This document shows positions 2,189-57,147 of a DNA stretch of 64,000 nucleotides, piece by piece; position 1 is the stretch's first letter; every line of letters begins with the position of its first letter. Origin of the DNA: Amoebophrya sp. A120 (Eukaryota > Protista > Dinoflagellata); NCBI GenBank assembly GCA_905178155.1, contig CAJINV010000003.1, forward strand, positions 3,901,600 through 3,965,599. The letters run 5' to 3'. The translations under genes were made by a program, and so were the position numbers. A model generated the notes under the pieces. It was given only the letters and a program-made list of their open reading frames with translations, was not told the DNA's origin and did no database searches.

Positions 2189-3058
2189 AGATGTTCGCTA
2201 GTGGAGCGACGAATCAGTTACCTTGGTGGATATCCCAACCGCGACGGCGAGCCAGCGAGCCGGATCTACGACTTTTCCAGTGAAACCTTGGTGCTGAGCA
2301 AGGTCACTGACAATTGGGAAAATGCAAACGGCATGATGATATCCTGTGCAAAAGTATCGCACTCGTAGTAGTTGCCTTTGTGCATAATTACCAAGGTAAA
2401 TCAGCATGCTGGGCTAGTTTGTAATGCAATTTATACTGATGCGATGGGATGGTTTTGCACTGTATAGATGAACGGGTCGTCCAGCTCCACGCCGTCTACT
2501 ACGACAACCCAGTCTTCGGCATTGTCGCGGGGTATGCAAACCTCCCTCCGGGATGCGCAGGGCGAGCCGTTCCACGGGTCCGCAGCGCAGTTCCACGGGT
2601 CCGCACCGCAGAAGCATCTGCATCAGCTGTTTTCGTCGTTGACCGATAGTACTAGCGTTGGAGGTGCGGGCACAACTACAAGCAACGACACGTCGTCGTT
2701 GCAGCAGGAGATGAACTACAACCCCACAAATAATACTTCTTCCTCGTTCAGCAGGCTCGACCGCGACCGGCGAATACAGGCGGGGCAGCCAGTCGTTGGA
2801 CCGTTGCCACCCCCTGGAGATAGTAGTATCTTTGGTGGATCCTCTTCACGCAAGAGCAGTAGAAGGCGGTCGAAGCCTAATATGGTAGTACCCGAACTGG
2901 TAGCTACCAGCAACACTTCGGGCACGAGCTCCGGCACGAGCCACCTCGTCTTCAAGAAGCGGGGCGACGATGGATCGGCAAAATTGCCCTCGAGGAGGAC
3001 CAGTGGCAGCGCAAAACGAAACTCTGGCGATCACAAGAGCAAGACCAAAGCGGATTAA
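2189..3058 (+). CDS. Ser/Thr-rich hypothetical protein segment interrupted by one TIR element
   Basis: ORF 2468..3058 extends about 50 codons upstream (..RIYDFSSETLVLSKVTDNWENANGMMNGSSS..) once element 2340-2466 and one GATGA copy are removed. True start and end are uncertain. Confidence 0.45.
2340..2466. mobile_element. Short degenerate TIR introner-like element (127 bp), DR GATGA
   Basis: Left end TATCCTGTGCAAAAGTATCGCA; reverse complement of right end TATACAGTGCAAAACCATCCCA. GATGA at 2335-2339 and 2467-2471. Contains an in-frame stop; excision rejoins the frame. Confidence 0.7.
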
Positions 3059-4542
3059 ATTTGTTCCAGTCCTCGGGCAAGCAACGCTGCACCCGACATC
3101 AGGACCTCGTCGCACCCTCCACAAGGAATCCGACCCGGCGAAGCAAAGCCAAACTTTCCGGTACACCTGGATCGCTGAGCTGCTTCACAATGAAAAGAGG
3201 CAACCGCGGGACGAGGAGAAATTAGTACGTAGGAAAAGTAAATAAACAGTACACAATTAGTTTAGAAGTTTGAGTACGTCGAGCGCTTAGAAGTGCCTCT
3301 TTTTTGCGGTAAAAAAGACCAAGAGACGATTTATTGAAAGTCAAATGAACATAGCAATGAATAAGATACTAGCTCGTCGCGACAAAAGCAATTCCGATGT
3401 GCTACTTAAGTTGATCTTAGATAAACGAATTCTGAAAAAAAATCCAGCGGCCACTCCAAACGCATCGCAACCCCGGTTGCAAATGCGATTGTGATGGTAG
3501 AAGAGTCCTGGCTCTGGCTGAATGACACTTCGTAAATAAAAAGCGACAATGCAAAAATGCAAAACTTGCGTAAAAACTTAATGAGCCACACAACCTGGTT
3601 GCGCTTTCTTATTTTTTATTCCTGCATCTCTAGTGTTTCATCTTTCACACAACATCGTCGCACTCTTAAAGTTCCGGTACGCCAATCCCCATACTATGCT
3701 ATGCCAAATCCTATCTAATGAAATAGTTGCTCATTGTGACAATTGTTTTGTCTTGCAATGTACCGAAAACGACCTGTGCCCTCCTCTATTTCATTTAAGT
3801 AGCTTCAAAATGTTTTTTCTACCACCACGAACGGTCGTGAATCCTTTCGCCAGAAAAGAAACCATCATAGTTTGAAAAAATATAAAAAGAATGTCAATCT
3901 CAATGCTCGAAAGTCTTGCTTTTCGAGGATATTTCTTCGATAATTGGCAGCTCCTGCTCTCTTAAGCTGAGTTAGTGATGGTCGCCACATCCTTCTTCAC
4001 TATCGAATGTCTAAGTCTTTTACAACTTTCAAATATTTCACTTTATCCATGAAAATGATAAAGGAGCGAGTCAAAAGATTGTCTAGCAGCATGGCGAATA
4101 TGTTTCGCGGCGTAGTTTTCTTTGTTTTCTTTACTTGTGCACTCTTCGTTTAGGTTTTTCCTCCTGAAGAAACGAAATCACACTTGAAAAACTTTTGTAA
4201 CGTAGTTTCTACTTAGAACTAGAGCGGTTGCGGTTCCCCGCGGTTCTTTCTTGTCAAAAGGTAGCAGTGTGCCCACTAAACCGTCTTGACAACTGAAGCA
4301 TTTGTGCTTCTGCATTTGTTTCAGCTTTGGTAGTTTTTGAGTTTCAATGTGTGCGTCCGTGTTGCCAATTCTTCGCCGACGACTCTGGCTCATCGTTTTG
4401 TCGGACCTCCGGCACTCCAGAAAAGCGAAAAGGAAAATTATACCAGATGTAGTTGTCCAAAATGTCATGCAGGACTAGATCGCTTTCCGATTCCGAAGCA
4501 GCGGCTGCAAAACTTCCATGATTAAAAAACACACACAAACAG

Positions 4543-4948
4543 ATCCCGGATGAAAAAGAATATGGCGAAGCAAGTATTACAGTGAAAAATGCCCCCACCC
4601 CAGAACTTGGCAGAGTCTGTGTTGCAAACTTTCCCAATAGAAACATTCCCCGTCTTGCATAATTCAGCATCACAAATTTCTAATGCGGAACAGCTAAAAT
4701 TTGTGTTGCGCGAGAGCCCAGCAGCAGCCGGGGCTGTCATGTACTTATATTTATAAGATGCCTTACTCGCCTAGGTTCCGCATCAGAAAGAGTCATAGTC
4801 CTTTCATGCAAGACAAAAAGTTTTCTTCTGGAAACTTTGCATCAGAAATTTTTGCAAAATCCGGGGTGGGGGCATTTTTTCTTTTGATAGCAAGTCCAGG
4901 AGGAGGATCCCGAATACGAGCGTCAGCGCCGCCTAACAAACGCTTTAG
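4543..4948 (+). CDS. Putative internal exon split by a TIR element (..MKKNMAKQ|VQEEDPEYERQRRLTNALG)
   Basis: Acceptor acacacaaacAG at 4542 and donor ttag|GTagtt at 4949. The frame is open only after removing 4575-4889 plus one GCAAG. Which gene it belongs to is unresolved. Confidence 0.45.
4575..4889. mobile_element. TIR introner-like element, family C (315 bp), DR GCAAG
   Basis: Left TATTACAGTGAAAAATGCCCCCACCCCAGA; right reverse complement TATCAAAAGAAAAAATGCCCCCACCCCGGA. GCAAG at 4570-4574 and 4890-4894. Internal GCATCACA/GCATCAGA motifs. TIR and length resemble 54187-54502. Confidence 0.85.
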
Positions 4949-5884: not shown

Positions 5885-8800
5885 ATGGAGTATGCGAAGA
5901 ATTCATTGCTCTTTTCTACCGCTGCAAGGGAGAGAGAGAGACGAGAAAGCAAGAGGAATACGAGAGGGAACATCAGATCAGAGCGCCACGCGGACGTGAC
6001 CACTGAACGCAGGGACGACCTTGAGGGTCAGGAGCCTCCCCTTTCTTCGGAGAGGCATGAGCGAGACCCACTTTTGAGTAGCGCAAAGTGTCAGCGTCAC
6101 TGGTGTGCCCGATGAGTGGAGTAAGAGAAGGACCTCATTCAAAGTTTCCAAAGAGTATGAGTGGCGAGTTTGCTCTTTTCTCTTGGAGAAATAACGTCGA
6201 CGCGAATATGTAGGTCAATGACGCGGGAAATATTAAAATCAGGTAACCCCACGACGCGCATCCACGGACTTGGGCCGGATAGTTGGCGCGACCAGGTGCA
6301 ATCCCACGCCGTTTTTCCCAATCACCATCCTCCCCAATTGTACCAGGGCTTGTTGCTACCGAAAGACAAAAACGAGGAGACGCTGAAGAGTCTGTACCAA
6401 GGGTCGTCGCGGCCGAGGGCCCAGCTGCTTCACCCTCACGCTGGCCACCACCATCTGTGGCACCAGATGCAGCAGGCACATCAAAACCAAGCCCGGGAAA
6501 GCAGCGGTGACGATGAAGACGTGGACGTCGGTAGCTTCGTGGCCCAAAAGTATGTAACTGGGACCAGCAGTATCGAATGCAAATATGTCTGGGTCTGGGA
6601 GATTCGATTGCAACTTGTCATGCGAAATTTGAATCATGCAAAAATCCGTGTTGCTTGAGTGCCAAAAGCAGTCCACTTTCGACGAAGCTGGGACGGAGTT
6701 TCTCATGCAGGAGAGGCATGACGATGACACAGAGACAGACATCACAGAGTCTGTCATGCTTGGTCCCGCATTCCAGACCTCATGGATCATGGAAGACCTG
6801 CATGACAAGTGTACACACTTCCAGACCCAGACATTTTTGCAATCCATAAGCAGCCGGTTGTACGGAGCTTCGGGCAGCACGAGCAGCAGGATCGTGGAAA
6901 ACCCGTCCTGGCAAAGTCGTTTTTCCACTACCTCACATATTCGGAAGCCGACGGCGGGCCGGGATTCGTCGGACTCGGAGGAGGAGCAGAGCGAAACAAA
7001 AATTATGAACAAGGCTTTGGTATCCTGTGCGAAAAATATTACCACCTCTGATCTGCCACATTCTGTGCATCGTTCGAAAGAAGCTACAATGTATGACAGG
7101 GCACGTGCTGACTGCCCAGGGCTGTCTGTCACCGCACAGTGACGAGAGCTGACCAGTCTGTGGACGAAGTAGCTTCCTCGGTAAAATTTGTCTTCTGTGC
7201 AGTCGTGAAGTTGCGGTGATGCGGTCATACATCGCTGACTACGTACATGATATTCGTCTTCGCGAGCTTTGTTTTTGCACAACGAATGCTGCCGCTGGCA
7301 GGGTGAGTCGTGTTTCTGCATTTGAGGATAGCTTGCTCAAAACCCAGGTGCCCTCCCTTGTCTGATGCGTCAAACCGCATATCATGACCGGCAGATGAAG
7401 CAGATGGGTCAGGCTATGTCAAAGAGGAACGAGAACGCAATCCACACTAATAATGAAGAAGAGGAAGAGGATATCACCCGCACAATCGACCGCATACGTG
7501 AAGTGGCAAGAAAGAACGGGAAGATCGACCCGACCCACATGCCGGACCATCCCATCAACATCGCCGAAGGTACGATGAGCGGTTTCCTCACGAGGACCAG
7601 CGATTCCTCGTCCTCGCCCGGGACGACCACGACCAGGACGGGTGCAACTACGTCCTCGCGGCAGCCGCGTCCACGGGTGCAGCACAAGCTTGAGCCCCTG
7701 GATCCCATTCAGCAAAACGTGGCCAAGCTTTTGATGGCAGAGACACAGAAGACGAGCATGGCCGCAGCAGAGACAGGGTTGCTGACCTCCAGCAGCGTGG
7801 ACGTGACGAAAATTAGCAAAAAGATGGCAGAAGAGGTTCCCCGCGATGAGCACGTGGTGGACGAGGAGTTGATGAAAATGCTGAGCTCCAGCAAAAGGGT
7901 ACGTTCGCATCTCAACATTGACGGAGACAGTGCCGCGGCAAAGAACATGATCGACAGCGACGCGGGCGAACGGCAGTACCGCGTAAACAAGGAGAACAAC
8001 AATTATGGCACCGCGGATGAGATCAACATGAACAAGCGGGACGAAACAAGCAAACCGATAGTACCGAAGTTCGCAACCCGGGCTGCTCAGCTGCAAAACA
8101 GTCGCGCTGGTGGTGGCAACCATTTCATGCCCACCACGAGAAACGCGAACCCCCTCCAGGCCGCATGCAGTGCGATCCAGCTGAAGCCGTCCAAAACGAC
8201 CGGTACACTCACGTTTTCCCGTCGGGAAGTGGAAGTGCTTAAGCACGAAAGCACCACCAGCGAAGAAGAGGAGGACATCATGGAAAACAAAGAAAAGCAT
8301 AACAAGGAGACAAATACTTCTAGTGAGAACAACTACAAGCAGAAGAATGACACCAGCACGCTGAACATGAAAAAGTCCTCGCTTGTTGACGAACCGACGA
8401 AGAACGATGAGGTGGAGGAGGTAAAAATAAATCAGAGAAAAAATGTCATCAAGTGTAGTACAACGGACCGTTCTATCAAATGTAAAAATGTCTGGGTCTG
8501 GAAGATTCTGAGACTTGTCATGCATGTTTTGCCTCGGCCATGATGTCTGTGATGCATGCCCTAGCATCACAGATTTTTTGAGGGCTTCGCGATGCCTCTT
8601 CCGCATGACAAATGCCCTCTCCGCGTAGCAAGAATTACACTCCCTTTGCTGCTCATGCAATACAGATTTTTTTGGAATCCAAATTCAGCATCACAAGTTG
8701 CATTCTTCCAGACCCAGACATTTTTACATTTGATACGTTCGGATGTTGAACAGCGGCAGGCGCGATCCGCACTGCGGATGGCGTATCAACTGCAAAAATG

Positions 8801-10349
8801 TCTGGGTCTGGAAGATTGCAACTTGTCATGCTGTTTTTGGACTCTAAAAAAATTTGCATTGCATGACCAGCAAGAGGGGCGCGCTTTGTGCTACACGGGC
8901 ATGGCATTTCTGATGCGGAAGGTGCATCAGGAAGCCCTCTAAAAGTCTGCGACGCTAGGTCATGCATTACAGGCATCATGGGTCATGAGAAATATGCATG
9001 ACAAATCTTGCATTCTTCCAGACCCAGACACTTTTGCATTTCATATGGCGAGTTACAAGCGACTCGGGGTAGTTCCCGCTGTGAACGATGGTCCCCCATA
9101 CGACCTCGATGAGCAGGCTCTGAAAAGAGAGAACGTGAAATACGCGCCCACGACCTCCGACCGCGCTTTGTGTCCCTTGAGCCAAGGGAATTATCTTTTT
9201 GAAAAAGATAAAGAAGCGAATGATGTTGAACAAGACAGCGTAAATTCCGCCGACGAAAGTGCCGTGATAGGTGCCAACGATCGCAATTGGCGACTTTACA
9301 TGGAAGAGGGTTTCAAGATCCGGCCGAAGGGCTCCTCCTCGTACCGCACTACAGGAGGCGCAGCTGCCCGCATTACGGGAGGTGCAGCTTCAAAGACGTC
9401 CACCTCATCTGCGGCCGTTTCTAGTATTCCATCGACGGCAGGACATGCACATCCTGCGGGAACAACGACCACGACGGCCGCAACCAGCAGCATCAAAACT
9501 CTGGGCGGGGGTGTTAAGTCCGTTCAGAGCTGGCGGGGCGAAATCAAGGCTGTCGCGCAGAGGAGGAGGCAGGCGGCTGCACAGGAGGTGGAACATCAAG
9601 CGCAGGCCGCGCAGGAGACTACGCAGTCGGTAGCGGAAAGCTCCGAGGAGTATGTGCAACAGCTGATTACGCGCGTCGTTGCCCAAGCTGCGTCCACCTC
9701 CGCCGCGGCGTGCAGTTCCTGCCCCAGTGATCATGATACAGCCGGAATAGTAGGTGTGGAGCATGGAGTGGACGCCGCGATTGTTAGTGGAGGAGCATCG
9801 TCCTGCGACATAATTTTCGACGAGGATCTCAAATCCCAATCCGGCGACGAGTCCGACCGTGGTCTGCACAACGGTTCTTGTAACGACAGCGACGCGAGCG
9901 GCCACACCATCGCAGAGGGGGACGATTTTTCCCCTTCCGGGGGTCCTCGGCTCGGAAGAACTACGTCTGTCGACTGCTTGTCGGAGAAGACACTCCCAGG
10001 AAAGAGGAATTTTTACACAGGACGAGCGCCGGTAGGCGTCGTGAGACCGCCGGTGACCTCCACGGCGCCCAAACTAGTACCCAGTGGAGCAGCTCGTGGG
10101 GACACCAGCGGCGAGGAGGAACAAGATGTCGGTCTTGTTCCTAGCAAGCAGAACGTAACTATTTCCTCGTCGGAATCGGAGTCTGAGGACAATACCTCCC
10201 AATCGGCGCAATATCTGCGTTTGCATCGTGTGCAAAAGAAGCTGAAAAAGAGGAGCAAAGAAGGCGCAGCCGCCAGGGAGCTGTCGAACTACAGCAACGC
10301 CGAGTCCGCATCTGGATCATCCGTCGACACCCCACCGGCGGGGGCGTGA
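5885..10349 (+). CDS. Large low-complexity hypothetical protein, interrupted by four TIR elements
   Basis: ORFs 6161, 6636, 7365, 8592 and 8985 join into one frame on element excision: ..YVTGTS|SRLYG.., ..TTDRS|DVEQRQARSALRMA|SYKRLG... The 5' end is uncertain. Confidence 0.65.
6571..6848. mobile_element. TIR introner-like element, family A (278 bp), DR AGCAG
   Basis: Left TATCGAATGCAAATATGTCTGGGTCTGG; right CCAGACCCAGACATTTTTGCAATCCATA. AGCAG at 6566-6570 and 6849-6853. Excision restores the frame. Confidence 0.92.
7021..7330. mobile_element. Degenerate TIR element (310 bp) that now fits an in-frame GT-AG intron (7020-7331)
   Basis: Ends are TATCCTGTGCG.. and ..GCATTTGAGGATA. DR is not conserved (TTTGG/GCTTG). 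Decayed internal motifs GTATGACA and GGTGATGC. G|TATCC..GGATA|G gives GT..AG in frame with ORF 7365. Confidence 0.5.
8474..8735. mobile_element. TIR introner-like element, family A (262 bp), DR CGTTC, reverse orientation relative to 8784
   Basis: Perfect 32-bp TIR TATCAAATGTAAAAATGTCTGGGTCTGGAAGA. CGTTC at 8469-8473 and 8736-8740. Confidence 0.95.
8784..9045. mobile_element. TIR introner-like element, family A (262 bp), DR TGGCG
   Basis: Left TATCAACTGCAAAAATGTCTGGGTCTGGAAGA; right TCTTCCAGACCCAGACACTTTTGCATTTCATA. TGGCG at 8779-8783 and 9046-9050. Confidence 0.95.
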
Positions 10350-19500: not shown

Positions 19501-19665
19501 GACCCCGCTGCGCGAAACAACCCGTTTAACTTTGTGCAGTCCACATTGCCAAACGTGAATCCCTCGATGAAACAGTTTGCCAGCGACGCACGAAAGCAAG
19601 CTGACACCATGAAGCAGCTCGCTGCCGACGCACGGAAAAAACTCTTCGGAAACATCAAGTTTTGA
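16527..19665 (+). CDS. VPS53: GARP/EARP complex subunit Vps53
   Basis: FDPIAFLNKQFPSEKSL, IKFLDLAKKNLTNTVT, LEHVERRYAWLRRTL, FCHITR, FRGIVSECFEAYL. Canonical introns at about 17778-17911 and 18260-18357. Confidence 0.92.
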
Positions 19666-20453: not shown

Positions 20454-23400
20454 ATGACGGAGATCCTGGCAGCAGCAAATGGCGGCTCATCCTCTTCTCC
20501 GCCGCTGCCACCGCTCGGACCGGTCGAGAAGCAGCAGTCGGATCCGCCGAAGATTTTTTTTGCCGCGACGCGCCTGCACCGGACGGATGCGAGCGTGGAT
20601 GCAGGGCAGCTTTTGAACAAATTGCGGCGGGTGATCGAGTGCGCCGGCGGTGCGGGCTGCCATGGATTCCTGGTCGCCTACCCTCTGTGGGACGCCTTTC
20701 TCCGCCGGTCCATTGACCGCATTCTGAAGTCCAAGCAGCGGCGCTTTCCGCAGCTGCAACTGCTGGAGCCGGTCCCCGTGCCCTACTGGGGCGCGTTCAC
20801 GCCCGCACTTTCCAACCTGATCGCGGCGGCGCTGGCGAAGAAGGCGGACCTTTTGATGTTCCTCTCCCTGTATCAATTGCAAAAGTGTCTGGGTCTGGAA
20901 GGTTGAAACCTCTGATGCGCATTTCAGAACGCAGAAAAATCTCTCATGCATAGTCAGCAAAAGTTGCCCACTTTCTGTCACCAAAGTCAGGGAATTGTCA
21001 TGCGGGTTCGGCATTGCGAACGCTTGTCGAAGCCTGTGATGCTAGAGCTTCCATGCCAGACCTTCTGTGTCATGCAAAAGCAGCACGATTCTTCCAGACC
21101 CAGACGTTTTTATATTTGATACCCTGGAAATGATCGTTAACGGTTTTTCCGTGGACATTTTGCGCAGCTACCTTTCCGAGACCACGCTCGTGGTTGGGCC
21201 CGAGCTCAAAAACAGCCACTTGTTCGGGCTGGATCACAACCCCGTGTTCGAGCCACCCACAAACCAGAGGACCGAAGTTGTAGATGACAAAGCAGAGCGC
21301 CATAAAAAGAAGCCTTCATTGTCGTCTGCTCCTTCCGAAGATGCTGATGAACACGGCTCGAATAGTTGTACAAGCAAATGGTCGTTTGAGGTGAGCGGGG
21401 CCAACATTCCGTGGAACACCTGCGCAATCTGGGATTTGCAGAAGTTGTCACTCTTCGGCTTTCCCAGCATCGCAGACGGGCACATTCCGGGAGTAGAGAA
21501 GGGGATCGAGGAGGTCGTGGCGATCAACATTGCGCAGTCTTGCCTGACACCGGCGCAGGCCGAGGTGAAGCTGATTCGGCTGCCGGAGAAGGGGACCACG
21601 TTGTTCAACAACAGTCCTGGCACCAGCAACAGAACTGTAGCAGGCCCACCGCAATTGCAGCTCTCGGCGAATTTGTCCGGACAAAATAGACAGGTGTCCG
21701 GTCCTATGGGTCCCGCCACGACGAGTATGAAAACCAAAAGCCCCGTAGCTGGTGCAACTACTACGACACCTTCAAAGGGGCCAGCAAACCCACCAGTTCC
21801 ATCGCTTCCTCCGGGCGAGGAAGTCTTCGCCAGTGAAGAAGGCCGGGCGAGTAGTGCCGGCAATGTCGCAGGCCAGGAGGACGCGATCTGCATTTGGGAC
21901 GTGTTTGGCACCGCGTGGATTGAGCTCATGCGCACGGGAGCATCAAGGACATTGGCGCGGGAAGTGTCACACATGATCGACGAAGCGCAGCACGAGCACT
22001 TCCGCGTCACCGCGGATGATGAGTTTGGGCGGTTGAGTGAGGGGAAGGAGGAGGATTACTCCAATGCCGGCGCGGATGGGGCGGCGGCCAACGCCAACAT
22101 CGGTTTAGCAGCAGGAGTAGGAGAGCTACAACTAGTCGCGGCTACTTCTGCAGCTGATGGCAATAAGAGCTTTTTTGCCAACAGCTCTGCCACTGCGGAG
22201 GATGACAAAGTGATTTCAGCCAGCGGAAAAAACCTGCAGAACATCCCACTAGCGCCTGCTGCGATGGCGGAGATAAACCAGAACAAGACGCTCCTGTCGA
22301 ACAGCGGGATGAACACTTCTAAGTTGATACTAGACGTCAACCTTCGGGAGGGTGACGAGCTTTTACTCGCGCCGAACCTGAAGGTTCTAACCAGCGACGT
22401 GGATCTGGTTCCAGGCGAGAGTCCTACTCTGCAAGTTGCCCTCGGCAACCCCCGCGGCGAGAACAATCCTCGCGAGAGCCCGGCCTCGGACAAAATTAGC
22501 ATTCACACCATCCGCAGCGGATCTCAGGGGGCGCAATCCAAGAACTCGCGGTCTGCTGGTGGAAATATGAACCTGGCTTCATCTGCCGTCGCAAACCAAA
22601 AAATGCTGGGTGCTGCTGCGGAACCGAACAGAAACTCCAAATCGAAGATTCCACAGCACCCTCCAGACGAGCCTCTGGCGCTGGATGGTGCGAGCTTCGA
22701 TCCCGTCGGAATAAGACCGCAGCACGCCGCCGCGGCCGCGGAGTCGACAGAAAATAACTCGGAAGCAGATGAATTCTCTTTCCTGCCAAAGGCCCGTGCG
22801 GGCGGCAGCAAGCCGCATACAGGAATTCTCGCCGGCGGTGGTCCTCCCATGATCGGAGGAATCACGGCAGGCGAAGGGAGCGCTGACGACATGCAAGAAC
22901 AATCCGGCAGCGCCGTGTCTTCCACCGGAGAAGACGACTTCATGTCCTCCGGCGGTGGACAGCAGATCGGGGACCAACAGCCGCATCAATTACTGAACAC
23001 GAAATCGTCCCCACCAGTCGTAGCAGCGAATGGAGCATCTTCTTTCCGAGGTGGAGCAGCAGCGGAGCACCAGCTGCCGCAGCTGCTACAGAAGGTCGCC
23101 AGTAGCGACTCGATCCGCAGCATGGGAGTGGCTTCCAGCGATTCCGAGAGCAGCAGGATCGTTTTCGGTCCCACCACCCGCTCCGCCCATATTGGCGCGA
23201 AGACGAAGGACCGCTCTTTGATGGCACGGGGCGGTGGACCAAACCGCAAGATGCCCGGACCGCTGGTGCGAAGCGAGGGGAGTACGGCGTCCATCGGCTC
23301 CATTTTCACGAAGGAGGAACAGAAAAGCCTCACCAAAGAAGAAAAACACATAAGGAAATGCGCCACCAAAATCTCCCGCGCAAACAGCCAAATGAGACAC

Positions 23401-23460
23401 CTCCAAAACCTACGCCCCGGAATCGTGCAGCACATAGTGCACTCTGTAACAACCTCCTAG
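20454..23460 (+). CDS. Hypothetical protein: globular N-terminal domain (WGAFTPAL, PWNTCAIWD, GIEEV) and long disordered tail
   Basis: ORFs 20424 and 21067 join in frame (LMFLSL|EMIVNG) after removing 20871-21121 plus one CCCTG. Confidence 0.75.
20871..21121. mobile_element. TIR introner-like element, family A (251 bp), DR CCCTG
   Basis: Left TATCAATTGCAAAAGTGTCTGGGTCTGGAAG; right CTTCCAGACCCAGACGTTTTTATATTTGATA. CCCTG at 20866-20870 and 21122-21126. Confidence 0.93.
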
Positions 23461-24156: not shown

Positions 24157-27100
24157 GTGTCGTCGTCCTCTGTGTCATCTGGCAACATGTTCTTGCCCGG
24201 TTTTTCGACGGACGATGAGCAGTGGGCGGCAGCCGCAGCTGCGCAACAGGACCCTCGACTTCTTGAGTCCTCCGGATCAGATTCAGACTGGGACCCCGGG
24301 CTGCGAAGTGTGAGTGGTGTGTTGGATGTGTACGCGAAGATTGCGGATTTCGGGGTGGCAATCCTGGATGTCCTGGTCCTCCAGCACATTCCGAAAGACC
24401 ACCCGAAGCTAGCCCCCATCGACGACGAGGATGACAGTTCGGAGGACTCGTTCTCCACCTCTTCGTCGATGTTGGAGCGCCGAGCGTCCTTCGAGTTGGA
24501 CTCTCCGCCCGAAGACGTGTACGAAGAGGAGGATGCTGACGAGCTGCAGAACTTTTATCAGGACGCCGAGGCCCAACAAGAACAGCTAAAGCAAGTGCAG
24601 CAAGGTGGAGCTCTTGTTTTGCCACTCCCGAGCCCCTCAGCGCTACAGGACCAGGAAGTACTTCTAATGAACAAAGGTGGAAATAACTATTGCGAGGTGA
24701 ACGACGGTGTTAAGAAGTCGGTGCAGCATTCGCGCGACCGTGACGGATTGGAGGAGGAGGCGGTTAAAAATGGGCAAGAAAGCATTTTTTCCAAAAAATC
24801 ATCGCCGCGGGAAAGCCAGGCCGAGGCCGAGAACAATTCTGCTGTGCAGGAACTAGCGGACGTCGAGTCAGTCTCAGCCCTGCAAGAAGCGTCATTCCTC
24901 GTAGAAGATGAAGAGGGAGAAACCACTCCCCACAATGGCGTGGCAACCAGTAGTCTGGCCGCAAACGTGGATGAGACGGAAGAGTTGAGTCCCGTAACCA
25001 TCCGACAGTCTGTTCTTCAACAAGAAGAAGTCCTCGGAGAAGCTGAGCTGCAAGCATCTGCTCCTCGCGAGTCGCTGGAAAGAAACAACGAGATGAAGCC
25101 GAGTGATGAAAACGATGCCAGTCGCAACCAGATGCTGGCGGAAGAAGGAGCGCGGAAAAGCCGCGTTTTGACCGCAGGGGCGGTGTTTGCCCGGACGCTG
25201 CTTGAGAAGCGCGCCCGGTCGCGCTCCGCGGGAGGCTTCAGCCCGAAGTATGGATACATGACTTCTTACCCCCATGGGACGGATGAGCATCATCAATTGC
25301 GTGAATACAACTTCACTCTGAACGACACTGCACCGTCTGCGATTATAACACACCAAGCTGGTGGGAGAAGCCACCGGTCGCGTGCAGATTCGAACTCACA
25401 GGTACTCCGAACAAAAGGCAGAAGCTTGTCGCTCGATTTGTATAATGCGGCGGGGCCCTCGTCGAGAACGAAGGTAACCTGCAGGAGAGGGAATAAGGGA
25501 GCGGCACGCTCGAGTATGATTGCAGATAATCATGCTGGCAGCAAAACGACGAGCAACCACCAGCTGTCCAAAACTGAGAAGAGCAACCGGAGTTCGCCTC
25601 AACAGCCACCGGTCTTAGTACGGGAGAACCGAAATAGTCCGGCCGTAGGACAAAAATCCTCGTCTACTTCTCCGCTCCGAACCAAGAAGCCGCACGCGAA
25701 GAAGTCGTGGTGCCCTTATCTCCTGTGCTGCTGCTGTCCGTCCGTGATTTCGAGAGTGTGTGACTCGGTGGCGGCGGGCATCGGTAACCGGGTCGCTGCG
25801 ATGCGAGGAGCCGTGCTCGGCGGCGTCTGTGACTTCTTTCTGCCGTTGCGGCACCGCCCCCTGCGGGACCGAGCGCCGATATTCGTGTGCAGCAGCTTGT
25901 TGGGAATCATCCAGACTGCAGCCCAGATCGGACTTCTGGGTCCCATCGGATTACCCTTCCAGACTGTCTACACGCTGACCTGCATCAGCTACTACCAAGG
26001 TACAGTGATACATAAACAGATTATACCACTTTCATCAAACTGAATTTCTTGCTCGATTTCTTCTTTTTTTGATGTTTGTCGTCTGATGTCAAGTACAACT
26101 ACCTTGGCGATGTGTCGTGAGTCCTTAGATAGATTCCTGCCTTTCAAGAACTCCCAGCTCTGTAATGTCAAAAGGAAAAGCGCAGTGATAGATATAAACA
26201 TCAAAAACTCAACCACAGCCGTCGTAACGCCGCCTGGTTTCATTCCGGAGAGTTGGTGGATCGTGGGTCCCGGGGTGACGTTTGAGCGCAAGCGGAAGAA
26301 TGGGGACTACCGCTACTGCACGATGGAGCGCGTTTACAAGCCGGACCGAGCGCACTACTGTCGGACGCAGCAGCGCAACGTGTTGCGCATGGACCACTAC
26401 TGTGGTTTCCTGAACAACACCATCGGTATCCGCAACCACAAGCTGTTCATGCTGTTCCTGACCTATGCCAGCTCCCTGTCCGCGTGGACGGCCTATCAAC
26501 TGCTCACCCGGGGCCCGGGGTTGCTGGCCCTCGCCACGACTGGCGCTGCTGGAGCAACAACGAGCGCCGTTGTAATTTCGCCGGGGGGACTCCTATTCCA
26601 CGTCGGGACCACAGGTATCGCGACCATGGTGTCGTTTGGAGCGCTACCCTTCTGCGTGTTCACGATGTGTCTGGCGGTCCGAAATCAGACCACCATCGAG
26701 TTCGTGGAAGGCAGTCGCGTCCTCACTCGTCGCCTCGCGGTGTGGGAGGCCCCGCTCGAGGTTATCGCGCAAAGTAGCAAAAGTCCATTTGGTGCGGGTA
26801 GTATCGTCCAGAAAGAGTTTCTGCGGACCCAGCAAGTGCAGTTGAATACACCCGCCTCGAGCGCGCTGGCACTGGCTGCGACGCCTGCGTCGGCGGTATT
26901 GGTCCCGCCGATGCTGGTGAACAAGGGCGACGAAGCGGCCCAGTTCAGCGACTTTCTCACGCCGAAGCAGAAAATCAACGGAACTTCTGCTGCGTCGGAA
27001 CTACGACCAGACAATTGCAGTAACAGCCGCGTGGAGGTCGAAGAAGAGGACAGTTTGATGAACACAAGCCGCACCGTCTTTGAAGACAGCACCCCAGCAG

Positions 27101-29312: not shown

Positions 29313-29437
29313 GGTCGTCGGCCAGGGCAGCCGCCGCCGGCCCAAGAAACACCAAAAAGAAACTCCAGGCGAAGCAGAAGTCGCGACAATTGAGAAACTG
29401 AATGAATTTTGCGCACTAGCACTAGGAGCAACCGGCC

Positions 29438-32400: not shown

Positions 32401-35400
32401 CTGCAGCGGCCATCGAACGACCGACACCGAAGAGCATCTCCGGTCGCTATCGAGCAGTACAACTCCCCGGAGGAACGTATTTTCACCGTGGAAGACTTGC
32501 TGATGATTATGCATTGCAAACTCCAACATGTCTGGACCTGGAAGATCGACTCGCGCATTTGCCATGCATCTCTTGGCTCACACTCACACAGAATGAGCAA
32601 AGAACCATATCAACAGATTGTGCAAGAGCGTCTTAAGAATGCCTATTCCACGTAAAGAAAAAGTTCGTCCTTCTCCTTGCTTTGCGTAGCAAGAAATGGC
32701 CGGCTTGTGGCTTTCATGCAATTCAGATGTTTGCACGATCCAGAATGGCTGGCATGTTGACATCAAGTTGCAACGTTCTTCCAGACCCAGACGTATTTGC
32801 GATGCATACGGATGCGCATGATTCAACTGAACGAACTGTTGATTCGACTGCTGCTCCCGACGCCCCCGAGGCCTTCGGAGAGGGTTGAAACCATCTTGCG
32901 GTTTTTCTACGACAACTTTAACTACACCCGAGACCTGGACGAGTTTTTTCCCCTTTACGTCGACGGGGGTATCTATCAACCGGAAAAAAGCTAGCACGCA
33001 ACAATAACGAAAAAGAAGTACTAGATAAATCTGTCTGTGTCTGAACTCCATGATGCTATGGGCAGCTCGCTCGCCGTTGACAGTTTATACTAAAAATTAT
33101 TGTGATGTTTTTGCGTTTACACAGCTTGATAGGTGATATGCTAGGTTTTTTCTGTAGGATGGCCTCGACCGGACCGAGCTCGCGGTGCGGCACGAGCGGG
33201 CGCGCGAGCGGGCGGACGAGGAACAGGACGAGGCCCGAGCGGAGTTTCCCAAGGGACACTACGCGTTAACGCGGGATAAGAACACTGGCAACGTGTATGC
33301 GCACTTTATTCCCCAAAAGAAGCACTACGACGATCGCACGGAGGACATTGCGAGGCAGGCTCGCGGAAAAAGAGGTCCCTCGAGCAAGAAAACTATGCGA
33401 GGATCCCTCGACCAAGATATAATTGAGACAACCGAGAAACAACAAGCTAACGCGCTCGCTCTATCTCCAACAAGGGAGCGGCAGCAGGAGCAGGAGGGGC
33501 ATCGCTTGGCGACAGCGAGCTGCTTCTCCAATCTGGAATTTTGGATCTCCACCGACGATGTGAGGTCCTGGATGTGGCGCTATCTCAGCGAAAAAATTTT
33601 GGGCTGCAAGCGACGCGCAAATCGGAAAACTATAACGGAGAGTGCGAATAAGGATAATACGTCTACTCCGAGTGCAGCAGCAGCAGTCAAGAGTTTGCAA
33701 GACCTGTACAAGCTTCGGCACGAGATAGACCTTCTTGGATTGTCGGGGGGTGAAGCAGGTACCCTTCTTGTAGTGGAAAATCTTTTTGTACCGTTCAATA
33801 ACAGAAAGAATAAAACGGACCGTTTGTTTCTTTCACAGTTTCTGTCCCCATCCAAAAAGAATACAGGTAGTTCAGGACTTTTTCTTTTGATTTTACATGA
33901 TAGGTGTATTGGGTCAGGGCGGGATCGGGAAGAAACCGAAGTCCAGCTCCGACGTCGACACGCCTCCAGTTTTACCCCTGCGCTCAACATTCACTGCCCC
34001 GACCTATTACTGCGACTACCTCGTGACGTCCATTTGTGACGAGCACGCCGTAGAGCCCGTTCTGGATATCCTCGCAACCGGTACCTACGCCGAGCGCGTC
34101 TGCCTCTCCTGCGGGATTCATCCGAAAAGCATCGGGTTCTGGGGTTCGGAGGGAAACTACCGGCAGCACCCGGATTACAAAGACTACATGCGCACCCTGG
34201 AAACCAAAGTTTTACCGCTCTGCGACGTGTCTGAGCACTGCATGAGAACGCTTAAGTGCAGCGTTCCCCGGTTGGACGGTGTTACGTTGCAAGAAAATAA
34301 ACATTTGAGGCTTCAAGAACCTTGTTACGATGCTCCTTCCTTTTCAGGTCCAGCCGCCACCGCCAGCTGTGCGCCGATGAAAGGTGGGCTTGGATACTGT
34401 GCTAAGATTTGTTTTTTCCGGCCGTGGCCGAAATTGAGGTGGATCGGAACCCTGCACGTTTCTGATCTAGAAGTAAGGTAAACGACATGTTAAAACGATT
34501 TTGTTTCGGTTTGAGATACTTTATGATACTGTCACCGGAAGATGATCATGCTTCCTCAAATAAACAAAACACAGGTGCTGGTACTGAAAGAAAACGGCTG
34601 AAGCTGGTGGCTTGGGGGGAGATTGGGCTTGATTTCTCCCATCGTGTTATGCAGACCAAGGTCGGGCCGAACATTCGTGTCGCACAAAAGGCTGCCTTCA
34701 CGGAACAGATTTTGCTCGGTATGTATCGACACAATAGAAAATTTTCCTTTTATACCCGGTCGGTTTTTTAGCTCCAGTGTCACCAGATAAATGTTTTGCG
34801 ACGTCCTTTCCTTCGTCGTTAAATAAAGGCCGGCAGCGAGAAGTCGGAAATCGTCGCTCAGTTGTTTAGATTTGCCTTCCTCCACTTCGACATTTTCTCC
34901 CAGGTGTGCACAAGTACCGGCTTCCCCTGCAGATTCACAGCCGGTCGGCGGAACCCGATACGGTTGAGATAATGTATGGCGCTTCAAACGTTACATTCTC
35001 AACTGTTACATGAATTTGTGATGCAAGAACAGCAACACTGAAAGGGGCAAGCTTGCACCTTTCGCATTACAAATTCGGCACAGATTTCAATGCTGTTTAG
35101 CCCTTCGAGAATTTGTCGTGCGGAGTAGCTTGGTTGTGGTGTGGCTGATGGCAATTTTGCATGACAAATCACGTAACAGTTGAGAGTGTAACGTTTGAGA
35201 ACTCCATATAATGTTGCGGTACGTGCCCCGCGACTGGCCGGTGCACATCCATGGGTGTTTCAACATATGACAGTGCACAACTCCCCCTCCCCCTCATTTG
35301 TCATGCAAAATACCCAGTCCACGTCGCGTCCACCCTTTGCCTCTTGGCACTGTTTGCATGACAGGTTCTGGTAGCCCGAATAGCACTACACTCCAGTGCA

Positions 35401-36135
35401 AATTTGTCATGTAAAACTTGCATTCTTTCTGACGCTTGTATTGCCGTGTATGCTATACAAATGAGGGGGAGGGGGAGTTGTGCGCTTTCATACAACAACG
35501 ACGACTTTCTGAAGAAGCTTCTCCGCACCTTCTCGCGATGCTACATTGGCGTCACCTGTGCGCTGGAGAACCCGAACGCGATGCTCTACTACACGAATGA
35601 CCCGAAGTTGAAATACGTCGACGACGACGTGACCGAATCGGCGGAGAATACTAGCGATGATTTTTGTTGTGAGCCAGTGATGGTACTTCCCAGTCCTTTT
35701 GCGAAAAAAGGCATTTTTTCTCGCGGCGGAACCGGAAGTGGTGGAATAAGTATCGAACAAGAGGAAGTCTCTGGAAACAAACGCTTGCTGCGGGGGGAAC
35801 ACGAAGACAAGAGTGCTGTTACCGGCACTTCTAATAGTACCCAACAGTTATCCCAAGCAAGAGCAGAACCCCCCACGCCGGAGAAAATAAAAAAGAATGT
35901 GCATGTATTCGAAACTCCGCTGATGCGACAGGTGCGGACCATCATTCCGCTAAGCCGGTTACTGGTGGAGACAGATGGCCCATACCTCTGCCCCGGAGAG
36001 GACTGGACGACAAATTTCAGTTACCCCGCACTTCTTCCGCGCGTAATACAGACGGTTGCGCGGCTGAAAGAGCGCCCAGAAGGTGAGGTCGCGAAAATAC
36101 TCCGGAAAAATTCTTTCGATGTGTACGGTATCTAA
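29438..36135 (+). CDS. TatD-family metal-dependent DNase with a very large insertion; five TIR elements plus other introns
   Basis: FVDTHCH, VAWGEIGLDF, QKAAFTEQI, LPLQIHSR, PRDWPVHIHGCF, YIGVT, PLSRLLVETDGPYL. The frame is restored at each TIR excision. One intron near 34230-34530 is unresolved. Confidence 0.88.
31879..32184. mobile_element. TIR introner-like element, family D (306 bp), DR CATCC/CACCC
   Basis: Imperfect TIR of about 50 bp: TATGGAAGCGTCAGAATCGAAAT..TTGTGATGCA versus reverse complement TATGGAACTGTCAGGATCGAAAT..TTGTGATGCA. The join gives TFHP|RRADY. Confidence 0.9.
32508..32808. mobile_element. Degenerate family A element (301 bp), DR ATGAT/CGGAT
   Basis: Left TATGCATTGCAAA..ATGTCTGGACCTGGAAGA; right TCTTCCAGACCCAGACGTATTTGCGATGCATA. 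Excision with 5 flanking nt joins ORFs 32077 and 32797 in frame. Confidence 0.85.
32974..33161. mobile_element. Degenerate TIR element (188 bp), DR GTATC/GCCTC
   Basis: Left TATCAACCGGAAAAAAGCTAGCA; right reverse complement CATCCTACAGAAAAAACCTAGCA. Excision with 5 nt joins ORFs 32797 and 33185 (GGI|DRTELAV). The nearby GT(32969)-AG(33157) pair would frameshift. Confidence 0.7.
34975..35208. mobile_element. TIR introner-like element, family E (234 bp), DR TAATG
   Basis: Left TATGGCGCTTCAAACGTTACATTCTCAACTGTTAC; right reverse complement TATGGAGTTCTCAAACGTTACACTCTCAACTGTTAC. TAATG at 34970-34974 and 35209-35213. Confidence 0.92.
35266..35492. mobile_element. TIR introner-like element, family F (227 bp), DR CAACA
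   Basis: Left TATGACAGTGCACAACTCCCCCTCCCCCTCATTTGT; right reverse complement TATGAAAGCGCACAACTCCCCCTCCCCCTCATTTGT. CAACA at 35261-35265 and 35493-35497. Confidence 0.93.
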
Positions 36136-52673: not shown

Positions 52674-55600
52674 ATGTTCGTGATTTCCCCGGAGGAAGCT
52701 GCAGAAGGCGTGGTAGACCAGGTTGTGAATGCGTCGCAGTCGTTTCTGCAACAGCAACATGCGCACCTGGACACCCCTGCCCAAAATCCTGTTTTCTTTT
52801 CTGGTGATGCAGCAGCCCTCACCCCGAATCGTATGGTGGAACCTCATCTGCTCGCAGAAGAATTTTCTTCAGCGTCGACAATGCAGCTGGAGTACCCGCT
52901 TCGCGACCCCTCCGACACGACGCCGGAGGCGATCTGCCTGCGCGTACTTTGGTTTCTGATCATCTTGACGCCACTCCTGTTCACCTGCTTCGTTTCCATT
53001 TTCGCGATCGGATGTCCGGCGTGCTGTTCGTGTTGCTGCTTCAAGGAGTACGTGTTGGAAGAAGACGAGGACTCAGACGAGGACGGGAACGGAAGTTTGG
53101 CCGCCAGCAACCGGCGGGGCGACGTCGCAAAGACGGGCGATACGCTGACGCCGTCGGCCTACTATCGGTTCGAAAACAACCCGAATGCAACGCGGATTCC
53201 GGTGGGCACGATGGCGACACCCCCCGAATCCCAGGCGCTGTTGTCCAAGCCCGCGGCCTCGTCCACGACCCGGGGCTCAAGCCTCGGCAGCACCGCGTCC
53301 AGTACTACAAGTAACCGCATCGTGGCGGGCCCCCAAAGCGGGCACCCAACCTCTGTGACGGCGACGGAAGCGGCGGCCGCGCAAGCGACCGCACGGTTGC
53401 TGCAGCAAACGGCCGGCTTCGAGGACGAGGAGGACGTGGAGGACGAAGCCGACGTGCCCGTCGCGCCCTTCAGCCTGGCCCCGACGATGAAGACCGGGGT
53501 GCGGTTCGAGGGCGAGGCCCGCAGCGAGTCGGCCTTCGTGGAGGAGGGTGGCCCCATCCGGGTCCTCTCGCGGCGGAAACCGGAGGGCGAAACGCTGGAG
53601 ACGAAAACCATGAACTATTCGCTGTTCCAACACACCCCGGCGGAGAACCAGTGCTGCCGGGTCCCGAAGCGGGCCTGTCCGGCGTGTTGCCTGCTCAACC
53701 TCGCCGTGTGGATGCTGGGCGGCTTTTTGGTGTTGTTCGGCGAGTTCATGTTCTGGAAGTGGTACGTGTACGACCCCCATTTTGAGTACAGCGAGGACAC
53801 GAAAATCGTGATCCTGTCTTCCAGCGGCGGGTCGGGCCACGTGGTCGCCGCAAACCGCCTGGTGCAGCTGCTGACCGAGCCGCCGAAGGCCGCCAACGCG
53901 ACGCACGTGGGTCCGGAGGCGGCCCGCGTGCTGCCGCACCTCGCGCCCGGCGCGGAGGAGGGCGGGTGGACCCCGTACAACGGTGGCAAGCGCTACAAGA
54001 ACCTGAAGAAGGAGGAGGTGGAGGTGATCTACGTGATGCCGCCCGAGTGCAAGAAGAACGAGACCACGGGCGAGGACATTGTCACCCCGGAGTGCGCGAA
54101 GCGGTCCTGGCTGCAGATGAACAGCGTGTTCGGGAACATGTACGAACTGATGGCCAACCACCTGATCAGCGACTTCGGGGTGCTGTTATCAAAATGAAAA
54201 ATCCCCCCTCCCATATCGAAACGAAGATTTCTGTTGCTGGATTTGTGTACACAAATCATTTTGCCATGCTAGAAGGCAAAAGAAGCGGACCGTAGTGCTG
54301 GGCGGCGCAAAAAAGCCTTGCATCTTCAGCATGAGAGGAGGCAGCTGGAAATGGGAAACGGCATGACAAATCGGCTCCAATTAAGGCCGCAACTGCGTCT
54401 CTTGGCCTTCTAGCAATACAAGTCGCTCTGTGTACTCACATACAGCATCACAAATACAAATTTCCTTTTCGATATGGGGAGGGGGGATTTTTACTTTTGA
54501 TAGCTGTTTGGCCGCGACGAGTGGGACCGGGCGCAGAAGGAGGGCGACATGGAGACGCTGTTATCAAATGCAAAAATGTCTGGGTCTGGAAGACTGCGAG
54601 ATTTGTCATGCTTGTCTGGGATGACCAAAAAGTTTGTGATGCGTGTCCAAGAAGAGACCCTTTTGCCTGTCATGCGAAAAACGCAACACTAAGAAGCGCA
54701 GATATTTCTCATGCTTGGCTGTGCATTACAGAGCATTCCCTATTCCCAACGCAGCATCACAAGTTTCCAGACCCAGACATTTTTGCATTTGATAGCTGTG
54801 GGCGTTGTACAACGACAAGCCGAAGGCGGACTTCATGTTCGGCTGGGCCTTCCGGTCCAACGCGCGGGCCTACCTGGACAAGCACCCGAACCTGGAGGTG
54901 ATGGTCACCGTGCAGTACCAGGGCACCTACCAGATGTGGGAGGCCGTGCGCGACTTCAACCAGGACCGGCGCGCCGCGGAGGAGGCGGACGTGCGGCGGC
55001 CGTACGACCGCGACGTGCACTTCGTGATCCAGATCTGCGACCCGGCCAACCCCGACAACTTCTTCCTCCCGGCCATCAAGCGGTTCCAGGACTACTCGCC
55101 CCCGTCGGAGCGCAGCTTCTACCACATGGACATGAGTTACGCGGGCGTGCCCTTTTTGGGGATCGCTAACTCCGCGGCCGAGGTGCAGCAGTTCGCGGAC
55201 GGAACGCGCCGCTACTACCATGAGGAGCTGGGCTTCACGGACGCCATCATCGACATGATGCGGTTCATATCAATTGCAGATTTTGATGTCTGGGTCTGGG
55301 AAAGGAAACTTGTGATGCAAGGAAGGGATGAATAGTGAAGTGAGCACACCGTAATGGTGCGCTTCACAGTATGACAAGTTTTTCCGTGGTTCAGAGTTGC
55401 GTACTTACTCCGCATGAAAAGCTGCGTTTTTTCATGACAGACAAGAGGACCTCCTCGCTGGCGCGCAATAGTTCAGAGTCATGCCAGCCTAGCATCACAA
55501 ATCTCGCAATCTCCCAGACCCCGACATATTTGCAGTTCATAGCTCACCGACGGCGTGATCCGCCCGGAGTTCCAGCAGATGGCCAACAAGATCTACCTGG

Positions 55601-57147
55601 GGCAGGTGGACCCGGCGGTCGAGCGGACGAAGGAGCTCCGGTATCAAATGTAAAAATGTCTGGGTCTGGAAACTTGTGATGCTGGGTGGCGTCTCATGAT
55701 GAGGCTACAAATGCTGGCTCAGCATGACAAGTTTCTGAGCTCCTAGGTGTTGCCTATTCTGCATGACAAACTGCGCTTCTGCATCACAGAAAAGCGGAGC
55801 GCTTGGGTAACGTGCATGACAGATTTAAGAATCATGCCAGACAAGCATGACAAACATGAATTCTTCCAGACCCAGACATATTTGCATTTGATATCCGGTT
55901 GAAAAAGCTGAAAAACGTGAATGGGAAGAACATGTTATCCTGTTTAAAAACGTCCCCACGACCTCCCCATAGTTTGTTAAGATCGGAACTCTGCTAGACA
56001 AATCAGCACGCTGTGAGACTGGCCCATGACAAGTTTGGGGACGCAGCATAAGTAGTTCTGCCTAGGTAGCCCAGACGCATCACAGATCCATTTTTCCCTT
56101 ATCCTGATTTGCGCATGACAAGTTACCGAAAACACGATCAAAAAATGCCCGTCATGTTGCGGAGCCGCATGACAGATTTTCTGGGCATGCAGATTTGCAT
56201 TACAACTAATCGGGTCGGAACGTTTTTACTCAGGATGCATGCAGGAAGATCTCGTCGTGCCGAAAGACCAGCACGTGGTGGCCATCATGCTCGGGGGCGT
56301 GGCCGCGATCGCCCCCACGTTGGAGTACGTGGAGCAGTCGGCCACCCGCACCGTGCGAAAAACGCCGGACGGCCAGTACCAGCTGGCGGACATGTGTGAA
56401 ACGAAGACGATCTTCGTCTTTTGCGGAGGGGACCCGGACCTCGTGAAGGCGGTGATGAAGAAGGAGGAGGAACTGAAGAACCGTGCCGGACCGGGACCCG
56501 CGGAGTTTCGCCAGAGCCTGCGCATTTTCGCGCTGGGTCGCCAGGGCGCCGACGTCATCGCCCCCGTCTTTGCCCGTGCCAACACCCTAATTGTTCGCGG
56601 AGGTAAGAAGTTGATGTAGTGTGCAAATTAAGTATTGTATCAGTGTGGATACATATCGATAAGTGTGAAACAAAAGTCAGTGGATGAAGCAGGAGGGCGC
56701 ACTGCTAAGATGGTGGAGGAGTTGCACAATTCTTCAATCAGAATCATATGAAAAGACATTGATCTTGATGTCGATGTGATGTTCATACTTCAACAATTCC
56801 CCACAGGCGGCGTCACTGCGTTCGAAGTGCGTGCGGTTGGGCCGGGGACGGACTTGGTGGTGCACTCCGAGCGGGCGATCAAGCCGCTGAACCACGAGCT
56901 CGGCGTTTGCACCAAGGGGATGCTGTCCCACGAGGCGGGAAATGCGGCGTGGGAGGGGGACGCCATGGGTGGCGTGGTGCTTTCCGACCTCAAGAAGCGG
57001 CTCCGGATTCTGCCCGACCCCAAAAAGGGGTTCATCACCCTCGGACGCGAGCGCAAGGGGTATCCCTGCCTCGCCCCGCAAGACGAACAGTACGTGCTGC
57101 CGTTCGCGAACGTCGGGTACACCAAGTCGCTTGGTTGCGGCCCCTAG
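52674..57147 (+). CDS. Membrane-anchored GT-B glycosyltransferase, GT28 / MGDG-synthase / UgtP-like; five TIR elements plus one GT-AG intron
   Basis: KIVILSSSGGSGHVVAANRL, DGVIRPEF, VAIMLGG, IFVFCGGDPDL, ANTLIVRGGGVTAFE. Continuous only after five excisions and intron 56603-56806. Two hydrophobic segments lie upstream. Confidence 0.75.
54187..54502. mobile_element. TIR introner-like element, family C (316 bp), DR GCTGT
   Basis: Left TATCAAAATGAAAAATCCCCCCTCCCATATCGAAA; right reverse complement TATCAAAAGTAAAAATCCCCCCTCCCCATATCGAAA. GCTGT at 54182-54186 and 54503-54507. Confidence 0.93.
54562..54794. mobile_element. TIR introner-like element, family A (233 bp), DR GCTGT
   Basis: Perfect 30-bp TIR TATCAAATGCAAAAATGTCTGGGTCTGGAA. 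GCTGT at 54557-54561 and 54795-54799. Confidence 0.95.
55268..55541. mobile_element. TIR introner-like element, family A variant (274 bp), DR GTTCA/GCTCA
   Basis: Left TATCAATTGCAGATTTTGATGTCTGGGTCTGGGA; right TCCCAGACCCCGACATATTTGCAGTTCATA. The join gives MR(F/L)TDGVIRPEF. Confidence 0.9.
55642..55893. mobile_element. TIR introner-like element, family A (252 bp), DR TCCGG
   Basis: Left TATCAAATGTAAAAATGTCTGGGTCTGGAA; right TTCCAGACCCAGACATATTTGCATTTGATA. TCCGG at 55637-55641 and 55894-55898. Confidence 0.94.
55936..56237. mobile_element. TIR introner-like element, family B (302 bp), DR CATGT/CATGC
   Basis: Left TATCCTGTTTAAAAACGTCCCCAC; right reverse complement CATCCTGAGTAAAAACGTTCCGAC. 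The join gives GKNM|QEDLVVPK. Confidence 0.88.

Follow-up and report, generated by a model that had tools for sequence, protein, structure and literature searches.

Amoebophrya sp. A120 was reported to carry introner elements by Farhat et al. 2021 (PMC7789003). As set out in the text of that study, their inverted repeats (IRs) start with TAT, seven nucleotides and AAA, they are bounded by direct repeats (DRs) of 3-5 nt, they measure ~240 nt and they fall into many families. The same text describes more than 60% of A120 introns as non-canonical, with RNA-seq support, leaves the intron border unknown or variable, and gives U1 as undetected. No transposase is reported there inside the elements, and no cognate transposase in A120. 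In strain A25 the IRs are described as starting with TTA and two purines, and the DR there overlaps their 5' end. How more than 60% of Amoebophrya introns are removed without GT-AG has been a standing question since 2021. Here we analyse a 64,000-nt stretch of A120 DNA (the window), in which 19 elements with terminal inverted repeats (TIRs) span positions 2340..56237.

Among 22 of the 58 A120 rows in a dataset of Gozashti et al. 2025 (PMC12130899), most are TIR DNA elements of an unclassified superfamily with mixed splice-site calls. That paper also describes a TIR family with an integrase-like open reading frame. For the nonconventional introns of Euglena, non-spliceosomal factors have been suggested in the text of PMC12501133.

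The intron class, the 5-bp DR and the TAT..AAA motif are already published for A120, as the text of PMC7789003 makes clear. Our addition is modest and includes no new class: it consists of diverged DRs as a way to fix the register of the cut, a candidate code for the intron ends, and a result on orientation. Reads can be aligned in more than one way across a DR, which is why the intron borders were left unknown; diverged DRs break this ambiguity.

Removal of the elements from RNA

Elements were detected by a scan for TAT..ATR that required paired termini, by an inverted-repeat finder and by reading of the sequence; we name each by its first position. They are 127-316 bp long. All 19 start with TAT, and they end with ATA (17/19) or ATG (2/19). 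The 5-bp DR is perfect in 13 of the 19 and carries 1-3 mismatches in the other six. When the scan demanded at least 14 of 20 ungapped TIR matches and a perfect DR, 12 elements were found in the window, whereas 30 block-wise dinucleotide shuffles gave none (mean and maximum 0). Element 34975 was missed at this threshold because its TIR pairing needs a gap. The original prediction, made from the sequence alone, had listed the same 19 elements with these lengths, ends and perfect DRs, and all of them are present.

The two ends of an element pair at 10-20 of 20 ungapped positions, and over longer stretches with gaps. The IR motif of TAT, seven variable bases and an A-run is evident, with A at positions 11, 12 and 13 in 15, 17 and 18 of the 19 elements. 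Nine window elements belong to a GTCTGGGTCTGG-type TIR family with internal identity of up to 80%, and the remainder represent further families; four elements begin TATCCT. Being short, non-coding and multi-copy, with TIRs and a target-site duplication (TSD) of constant length, the elements are probably miniature inverted-repeat transposable elements (MITEs). A TIR 20-mer gave 0 matches in viral_contigs.

Removing an element together with 5 nt leaves an open frame on the + strand in 18 of 19 cases, and retaining it introduces an in-frame stop or a frameshift. The open frame had been claimed for every element; the exception is 4575, whose coding context is only a putative 86-nt exon. The claim that most elements have no in-frame GT-AG pair at their ends stands for 12 of the 19. 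The other seven have such a pair within 12 nt of their ends, and at 55936 the GT-AG alternative has exactly the same net length.

Four sequencing runs, of 11 listed, were compared with positions 16600-36500: X1, X3, X9 and X10. X3 is presumed to be RNA: 4 of 30 bins have zero depth, and GT-AG introns are missing from its long contigs. X1 behaves as DNA, with all 30 bins covered at ~44. RNA-type junction evidence covers 7 of the 19 elements, and five of the other 12 are supported by annotation.

All seven covered elements are missing from the X3 contigs, each with 5 extra nucleotides; two of them lie in a DHHC gene and five in a TatD gene. Four GT-AG introns are missing from the same contigs (contigs 11 and 12). 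In contig 11 a 219-nt GT-AG intron is missing, and a second gap, of 557 nt, equals the predicted 266+291 for two elements. Contig 12 has an 810-nt gap that equals the predicted 311+306+193 for three elements, and a 992-nt gap that equals 521 for three GT-AG introns plus 239+232 for two elements. The removal of five elements in this one 5.5-kb contig yields a 1631-codon frame. Elements 32508 and 32974 are aged, with a DR identity of 3/5, and are still removed at +5.

In X1, contig 5 (32157-35012, depth 44.1) holds elements 32508 and 32974 and three GT-AG introns intact, and there are X1 contigs that start in unique flanks and continue into the ends of elements. The summed X1 depth in element bins, which is not a copy count, is 11,276-200,887 compared with ~44 elsewhere; in the bin with the two aged elements it is 443. 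X9 and X10 gave partial matches to element ends only (78/78 and 119/121 reads partly on the stretch), with no unique coverage. Because X1 keeps two elements at single-copy depth while X3 lacks elements, these data place the removal at the RNA level.

Public annotation was compared at a third gene. The 502-aa exon at 52674-54179 matches P0001, a protein of Amoebophrya sp. A120, with 100% identity. When five elements, 5 nt with each, and one GT-AG intron are taken out of this gene, all 955 residues of P0001 are obtained, only if 2-4 bases of the left DR are kept. Since the public protein is reproduced without the five elements, the annotation already treats them as introns. The identification of the elements as Amoebophrya IR/DR introners is borne out by this exon and by the published A120 class. 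Precise removal of an element and one DR without GT-AG, also predicted, is seen at 7/7 elements covered by contigs and at five more through the public protein. We conclude that the elements are, with little doubt, removed at the RNA level and identical to the published A120 introners.

Position of the cut within the direct repeat

Joints were placed as far left as the letters allow, a placement checked on GT-AG introns and on perfect DRs. At element 31879 the X3 piece ends at 31876 with 0 other letters, so that base 3 of the left DR is kept. At element 32974 the X3 piece resumes at 33165, so that bases 1-3 of the left DR are kept. In P0001, residue F678 requires base 2 of the left DR at element 55268, and Q723 requires base 5 of the right DR at element 55936, where base 5 of the left DR would give a stop. 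The RNA joints of two elements therefore place the cut after DR base 3, 4 or 5, and the annotation of one element places it before base 5. If a single register is assumed, the cut falls after DR base 3 or 4.

Metagenome contigs were scanned for the same pattern, which yielded 151 loci (L001-L151), all with one assembly prefix, and 163 further elements at them. The 5-bp DR is perfect in 129 of these; 131 were scored, and a confident strand could be given to 73. None of the 151 loci matched the window flanks in an empty-site comparison. The assembly carries the same TIR family at many loci, and one of its proteins is 82-95% identical to an A120 protein, which points to a close relative.

One of these loci, L149, separates the two registers. 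Its DR copies differ at base 4, and the A120 orthologue of its protein, P0002 (identity of 82% on one side and 95% on the other), has a K that requires base 4 of the right DR. Judged from this orthologue site, a cut after base 3 is favoured, and the intron would read NN-TAT..ATR-NNN. Other base-4 DR mismatches in related loci fall in exons too short for a search. In the text and legends of the literature searched, figures aside, we found no explicit splice register for the A120 elements.

We think it probable that a fixed register is common to all elements. Several points weigh against this reading and against the removal that underlies it. The register is derived from two RNA joints, two annotated residues and one orthologue site; the last of these, at L149, comes from another organism and is a single site with a conservative K/R exchange. 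Given the GT-AG alternative of equal length at 55936, the upper bound there depends on annotation. For 32508, 34975 and the right joint of 27309 the evidence is in gap sums only. X3 consists of contigs, which drop minor forms, and its RNA nature is a guess that does not come from its record. The legend of Fig. 3 in PMC7789003 describes the positions as variable.

Candidate mechanisms of removal

Junction and orientation statistics were drawn from 91 oriented elements, 18 from the window (4575 was left out) and 73 related ones. GT-AG occurs in at most 3/91 at any of six registers, and G[TCA]-AG in at most 5/91. Each of the 16 possible pairs of first and last bases is present at registers 3 and 4. 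Apart from a general richness in G, no position of the DR is biased. The elements thus lack the GT or GC start and the AG end of canonical U2 introns. Relative to the predicted host strand, 19 family copies have the same orientation and 18 the reverse. Reversed family pairs are found inside + strand genes (54562/55642, 27636/55936 and 8474/8784). Because both orientations are used, the signal must be symmetric, which points to the TIR. The terminal TAT is conserved at 97-98% of 276 ends that were anchored without demanding TAT. Element positions 6, 9 and 11-13 are as conserved as TAT at these ends, so constraint from splicing and constraint from a transposase are inseparable here.

From these results we give about an even chance to the view that A120 introners are cut from RNA at a fixed distance from a terminal hairpin, by a structure-guided cut-and-join activity and not by GT-AG recognition. 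A cut-and-paste transposase encoded elsewhere would insert the element in either orientation and duplicate 5 bp of exon. In the pre-mRNA the TIRs are predicted to pair and to unite both ends, whichever the orientation. The element and 5 nt would then be removed and the frame restored, as found for 7 elements by contigs and 5 by annotation. The cut would fall at one register of the DR, with base 3 favoured, and the enzyme may be of the endonuclease-plus-ligase type, as proposed for Euglena nonconventional introns. Hairpin-guided RNA removal, one of the two routes offered by the original prediction, agrees with the unbiased orientation and the sequence-free junctions.

The predicted folds vary. 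Young element 27309 is predicted to form a long stem (z -6.5). A terminal stem is also predicted for 32974, which is removed exactly nonetheless. Four observations speak against a structure-guided cut. Element 32974 as a whole folds no better than shuffles (z -0.9). Window TIRs show an excess of G-U over A-C (24 vs 11, p 0.04), which we rejected as a sign of selection on the RNA stem: in 70 related elements the counts were 44 vs 54, and since the excess was not replicated, such selection is unsupported. According to the text of PMC7789003, A120 keeps U2, U4, U5 and U6 and 83 of 89 spliceosomal proteins, with U1 not found. As described in the available part of PMC13326754, TIR-derived non-canonical introns of Fritillaria borealis need the U2 spliceosome.

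The last two observations favour a modified U2 spliceosome, its U1 absent or divergent, that would measure the cut from the hairpin, as in Fritillaria borealis. We rank an endonuclease plus ligase slightly ahead of it because neither the junction bases nor the orientation is constrained and a stem holds both ends. Such a structure-guided, non-spliceosomal enzyme, argued by analogy, has in our estimate a chance just short of even, and the modified spliceosome is a serious contender of somewhat lower probability. In one variant of the spliceosomal explanation the cut would come after DR base 4, which would set TAT at +2..+4, like host GTA(C/T) donors with a free +1. Among 24 hand-picked host GT-AG introns (14421-62295), the donor is GTA in 23 and the +5 base is not fixed, which fits the reported absence of U1. 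The acceptors of these introns are YAG, A/C-rich upstream and without a pyrimidine tract. A polypyrimidine role for the T-run in the 3' TIR was considered and is unsupported, as host acceptors are A/C-rich.

A motif inside the elements bears on the same question. The 4,985 nt of elements hold 53 copies of TGTnATGC / GCATnACA, and the other 59,015 nt of the window hold 3. The motif is common to the TIR families; measured from the element ends, it lies ~34-46 nt in on the 5' side and 41-58 nt in on the 3' side. The core of the GCATnACA-type motif resembles a branch point, and in 54 of 73 oriented elements it is placed 36-68 nt from the 3' end. However, the motif belongs to the inverted repeat (in 56/73 it is also near the 5' end) and may be a transposase site. 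We regard it as a candidate for either a transposase site or a branch-like signal. The TATCCT start of four window elements resembles a minor-spliceosome donor, but minor small nuclear RNAs are reported absent.

Other results are less easily reconciled with a spliceosome. The orthologue site at L149 favours a cut after base 3, and on this sequence comparison donor mimicry through a cut after base 4 appears weakened. G is found at DR base 5 in 31/91 elements, with no enrichment over other positions. The occurrence of all 16 first/last base pairs and the equal use of both orientations also argue against it.

In its strongest form, the preferred reading of a structure-guided cut would mean that A120 nuclei have, beside the spliceosome, another splicing pathway that is non-spliceosomal and recognises nothing but the terminal hairpin (NN-TAT..ATA-NNN), whatever the junction bases and the orientation. 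Tens of thousands of insertions would thereby be rendered harmless. This would be an independent alveolate origin of Euglena-like splicing. We put it forward tentatively, as rather less probable than the enzyme assignment itself. If true, such sequence-blind and orientation-blind excision would explain how a transposon fills the genes of a compact genome, and the system could serve as a scarless RNA editing tool.

Reverse-transcriptase template switches across hairpins with short repeats, in genes that are interrupted or dead, could also leave seamless junctions. A hairpin with a short direct repeat is a known substrate for such switches, and the RNA evidence is in assembled contigs. We nevertheless consider this very improbable. 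Removal is exact even where DR identity is 3/5 (32508 and 32974) and the fold is weak (32974), the loss of five elements from one contig gives the 1631-codon frame, and retention gives a stop or frameshift in 18/18 frames. Tens of thousands of such introns are also reported genome-wide in the text of PMC7789003.

Removal from DNA in an expressing life stage, the second route of the original prediction, is unlikely and the least probable of all: the ends are transposon-like and the elements begin and end with TA, and the basis for the judgement is one DNA-like run of unspecified stage with 15 of 200 joints listed, but that run holds two elements at the depth of its single-copy flanks (44.1) and passes from unique flanks into element ends, the contigs without elements are also without GT-AG introns, and the joined form keeps one 5-bp DR and no TA, whereas a ciliate internal eliminated sequence leaves one TA when it is removed from DNA.

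Host genes, individual elements and related introns

All gene models read in the window are on the + strand, as are the elements listed below. The elements are grouped in 7 loci, where neighbours are often separated by 42-100 nt. GT-AG introns are the only introns in the conserved-looking genes at 16.5-19.7, 43.4-45.3, 47.6-51.7 and 58.3-63.0 kb.

The host gene at 24187..28091 (+) encodes a DHHC palmitoyltransferase (1042-aa model; PF01529, E 7e-25) and contains one GT-AG intron and two elements, both absent from X3 contig 11. These are 27309..27569 (261 bp, perfect DR CCTTA), which has the predicted long hairpin, and 27636..27921 (286 bp, TATCCTG family, perfect DR CCCCC).

The gene at 29438..36135 (+) encodes a TatD-related DNase (1631-aa model; PF01026, E 1e-11 in the last exon) with three GT-AG introns and five elements. 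Element 31879..32184 (306 bp, DR CATCC/CACCC) is the one whose left DR base 3 is retained in the X3 contig; a TAT at ~31908 within it is comparable to the inner repeat described below. The aged elements are 32508..32808 (301 bp, DR ATGAT/CGGAT), absent from X3 contig 12 by sum, and 32974..33161 (188 bp, ending ATG, DR GTATC/GCCTC), whose left DR bases 1-3 are retained in X3. Element 34975..35208 (234 bp, perfect DR TAATG) is absent from contig 12 by sum. At 35266..35492 (227 bp, perfect DR CAACA) the X3 contig piece resumes at 35493. The TatD domain is interrupted by long insertions, and the Pfam match is in the last exon only. Just upstream, 29170-29320 holds short tandem repeats and then telomere-like repeats of the TTAGGG type. 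In X1 this part has a raised depth of 87-206, and the X3 contig begins at 29174.

The gene for P0001 (955 aa, NCBI) lies at 52674..57147 (+) and has one GT-AG intron and five elements, which fall within 2 kb of its high-GC coding part. They are 54187..54502 (316 bp, perfect DR GCTGT), 54562..54794 (233 bp, perfect DR GCTGT, reversed relative to 55642), 55268..55541 (274 bp, DR GTTCA/GCTCA, where F678 keeps left DR base 2), 55642..55893 (252 bp, perfect DR TCCGG) and 55936..56237 (302 bp, TATCCTG family, ending ATG, DR CATGT/CATGC, reversed relative to 27636). Nested in the first is an inner TAT..ATA inverted repeat at 54214-54474 without a DR of its own. This suggests that new families arise as outer ends are gained around older elements. 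P0001 had no Pfam match and no PDB sequence match; two short motifs may resemble those of a glycosyltransferase of the GT-B type. The original prediction had conserved motifs rebuilt by removal in three genes. The TatD and DHHC hosts are supported by Pfam, each within single exons, P0001 is not, and rebuilding across junctions was judged by eye against known motifs.

Seven elements lie outside these three genes. At 2340..2466 (127 bp, perfect DR GATGA) removal gives an open frame and retention a stop. Element 4575..4889 (315 bp, perfect DR GCAAG) is within the putative 86-nt exon (4543-4948, between AG and GT). Element 6571..6848 (278 bp, perfect DR AGCAG) is of the GTCTGGGTCTGG family. The degenerate element 7021..7330 (310 bp) has DR TTTGG/GCTTG, with mismatches at bases 1, 2 and 4; an end at 7288 was rejected, as the frame is open only with the end at 7330. 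Element 8474..8735 (262 bp, perfect DR CGTTC) is reversed relative to 8784 and 27309 (77-78% internal identity), and 8784..9045 (262 bp, perfect DR TGGCG) follows it. For the exon 7335-8468, a weak protein search (proteins of 663-2000 aa) gave no match. Element 20871..21121 (251 bp, perfect DR CCCTG) is in a host gene outside X3 contig coverage.

The closest match to the window elements is the set of A120 introners itself: the strain, the paired IR ends, the DR, the TAT + 7 nt + AAA motif, the division into families and the removal without GT-AG all agree. Compared with the account in the text of PMC7789003, the DR is 5 bp here (13/19 in the window; 129/163 in related elements), the possible cut sites are reduced to those after base 3 and base 4, and the two orientations are used without bias.

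Introner-like elements of Symbiodinium and Polarella (bioRxiv 10.1101/2020.10.14.339549) are also dinoflagellate elements with TIR and TSD, some of them introns in either orientation. As described in the available part of that preprint, they recruit GT/GC/GA and AG from the TSD or the element, whereas G[TCA]-AG is nearly absent from the A120 elements. The introns of Fritillaria borealis (PMC13326754; PMC11282704), in the parts of these papers available, are likewise MITE-derived, with TIR and TSD, non-GT-AG, and found beside conserved GT-AG introns. They prefer AG-AC or AG-AT, keep U1 and depend on the U2 spliceosome; the A120 elements have no dinucleotide preference, and U1 is undetected.

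Nonconventional introns of Euglena (Nomura et al. 2025, PMC12501133; PMC11282704) share more features, as far as the available parts of these sources describe them: TIR/TSD-like ends, no GT-AG, GT-AG introns in the same genes, and a paired terminal motif at a fixed spacer. Circles are reported for the Euglena introns. The Euglena code is N3CDG / CH'G N5-6 with an exonic purine. In the A120 elements the motif is TAT/ATR, the spacers measure 1-2 and 3-4 nt, and the exon showed no purine rule. The A120 elements work like Euglena-type nonconventional introns but, with a different code, are not members of that class.

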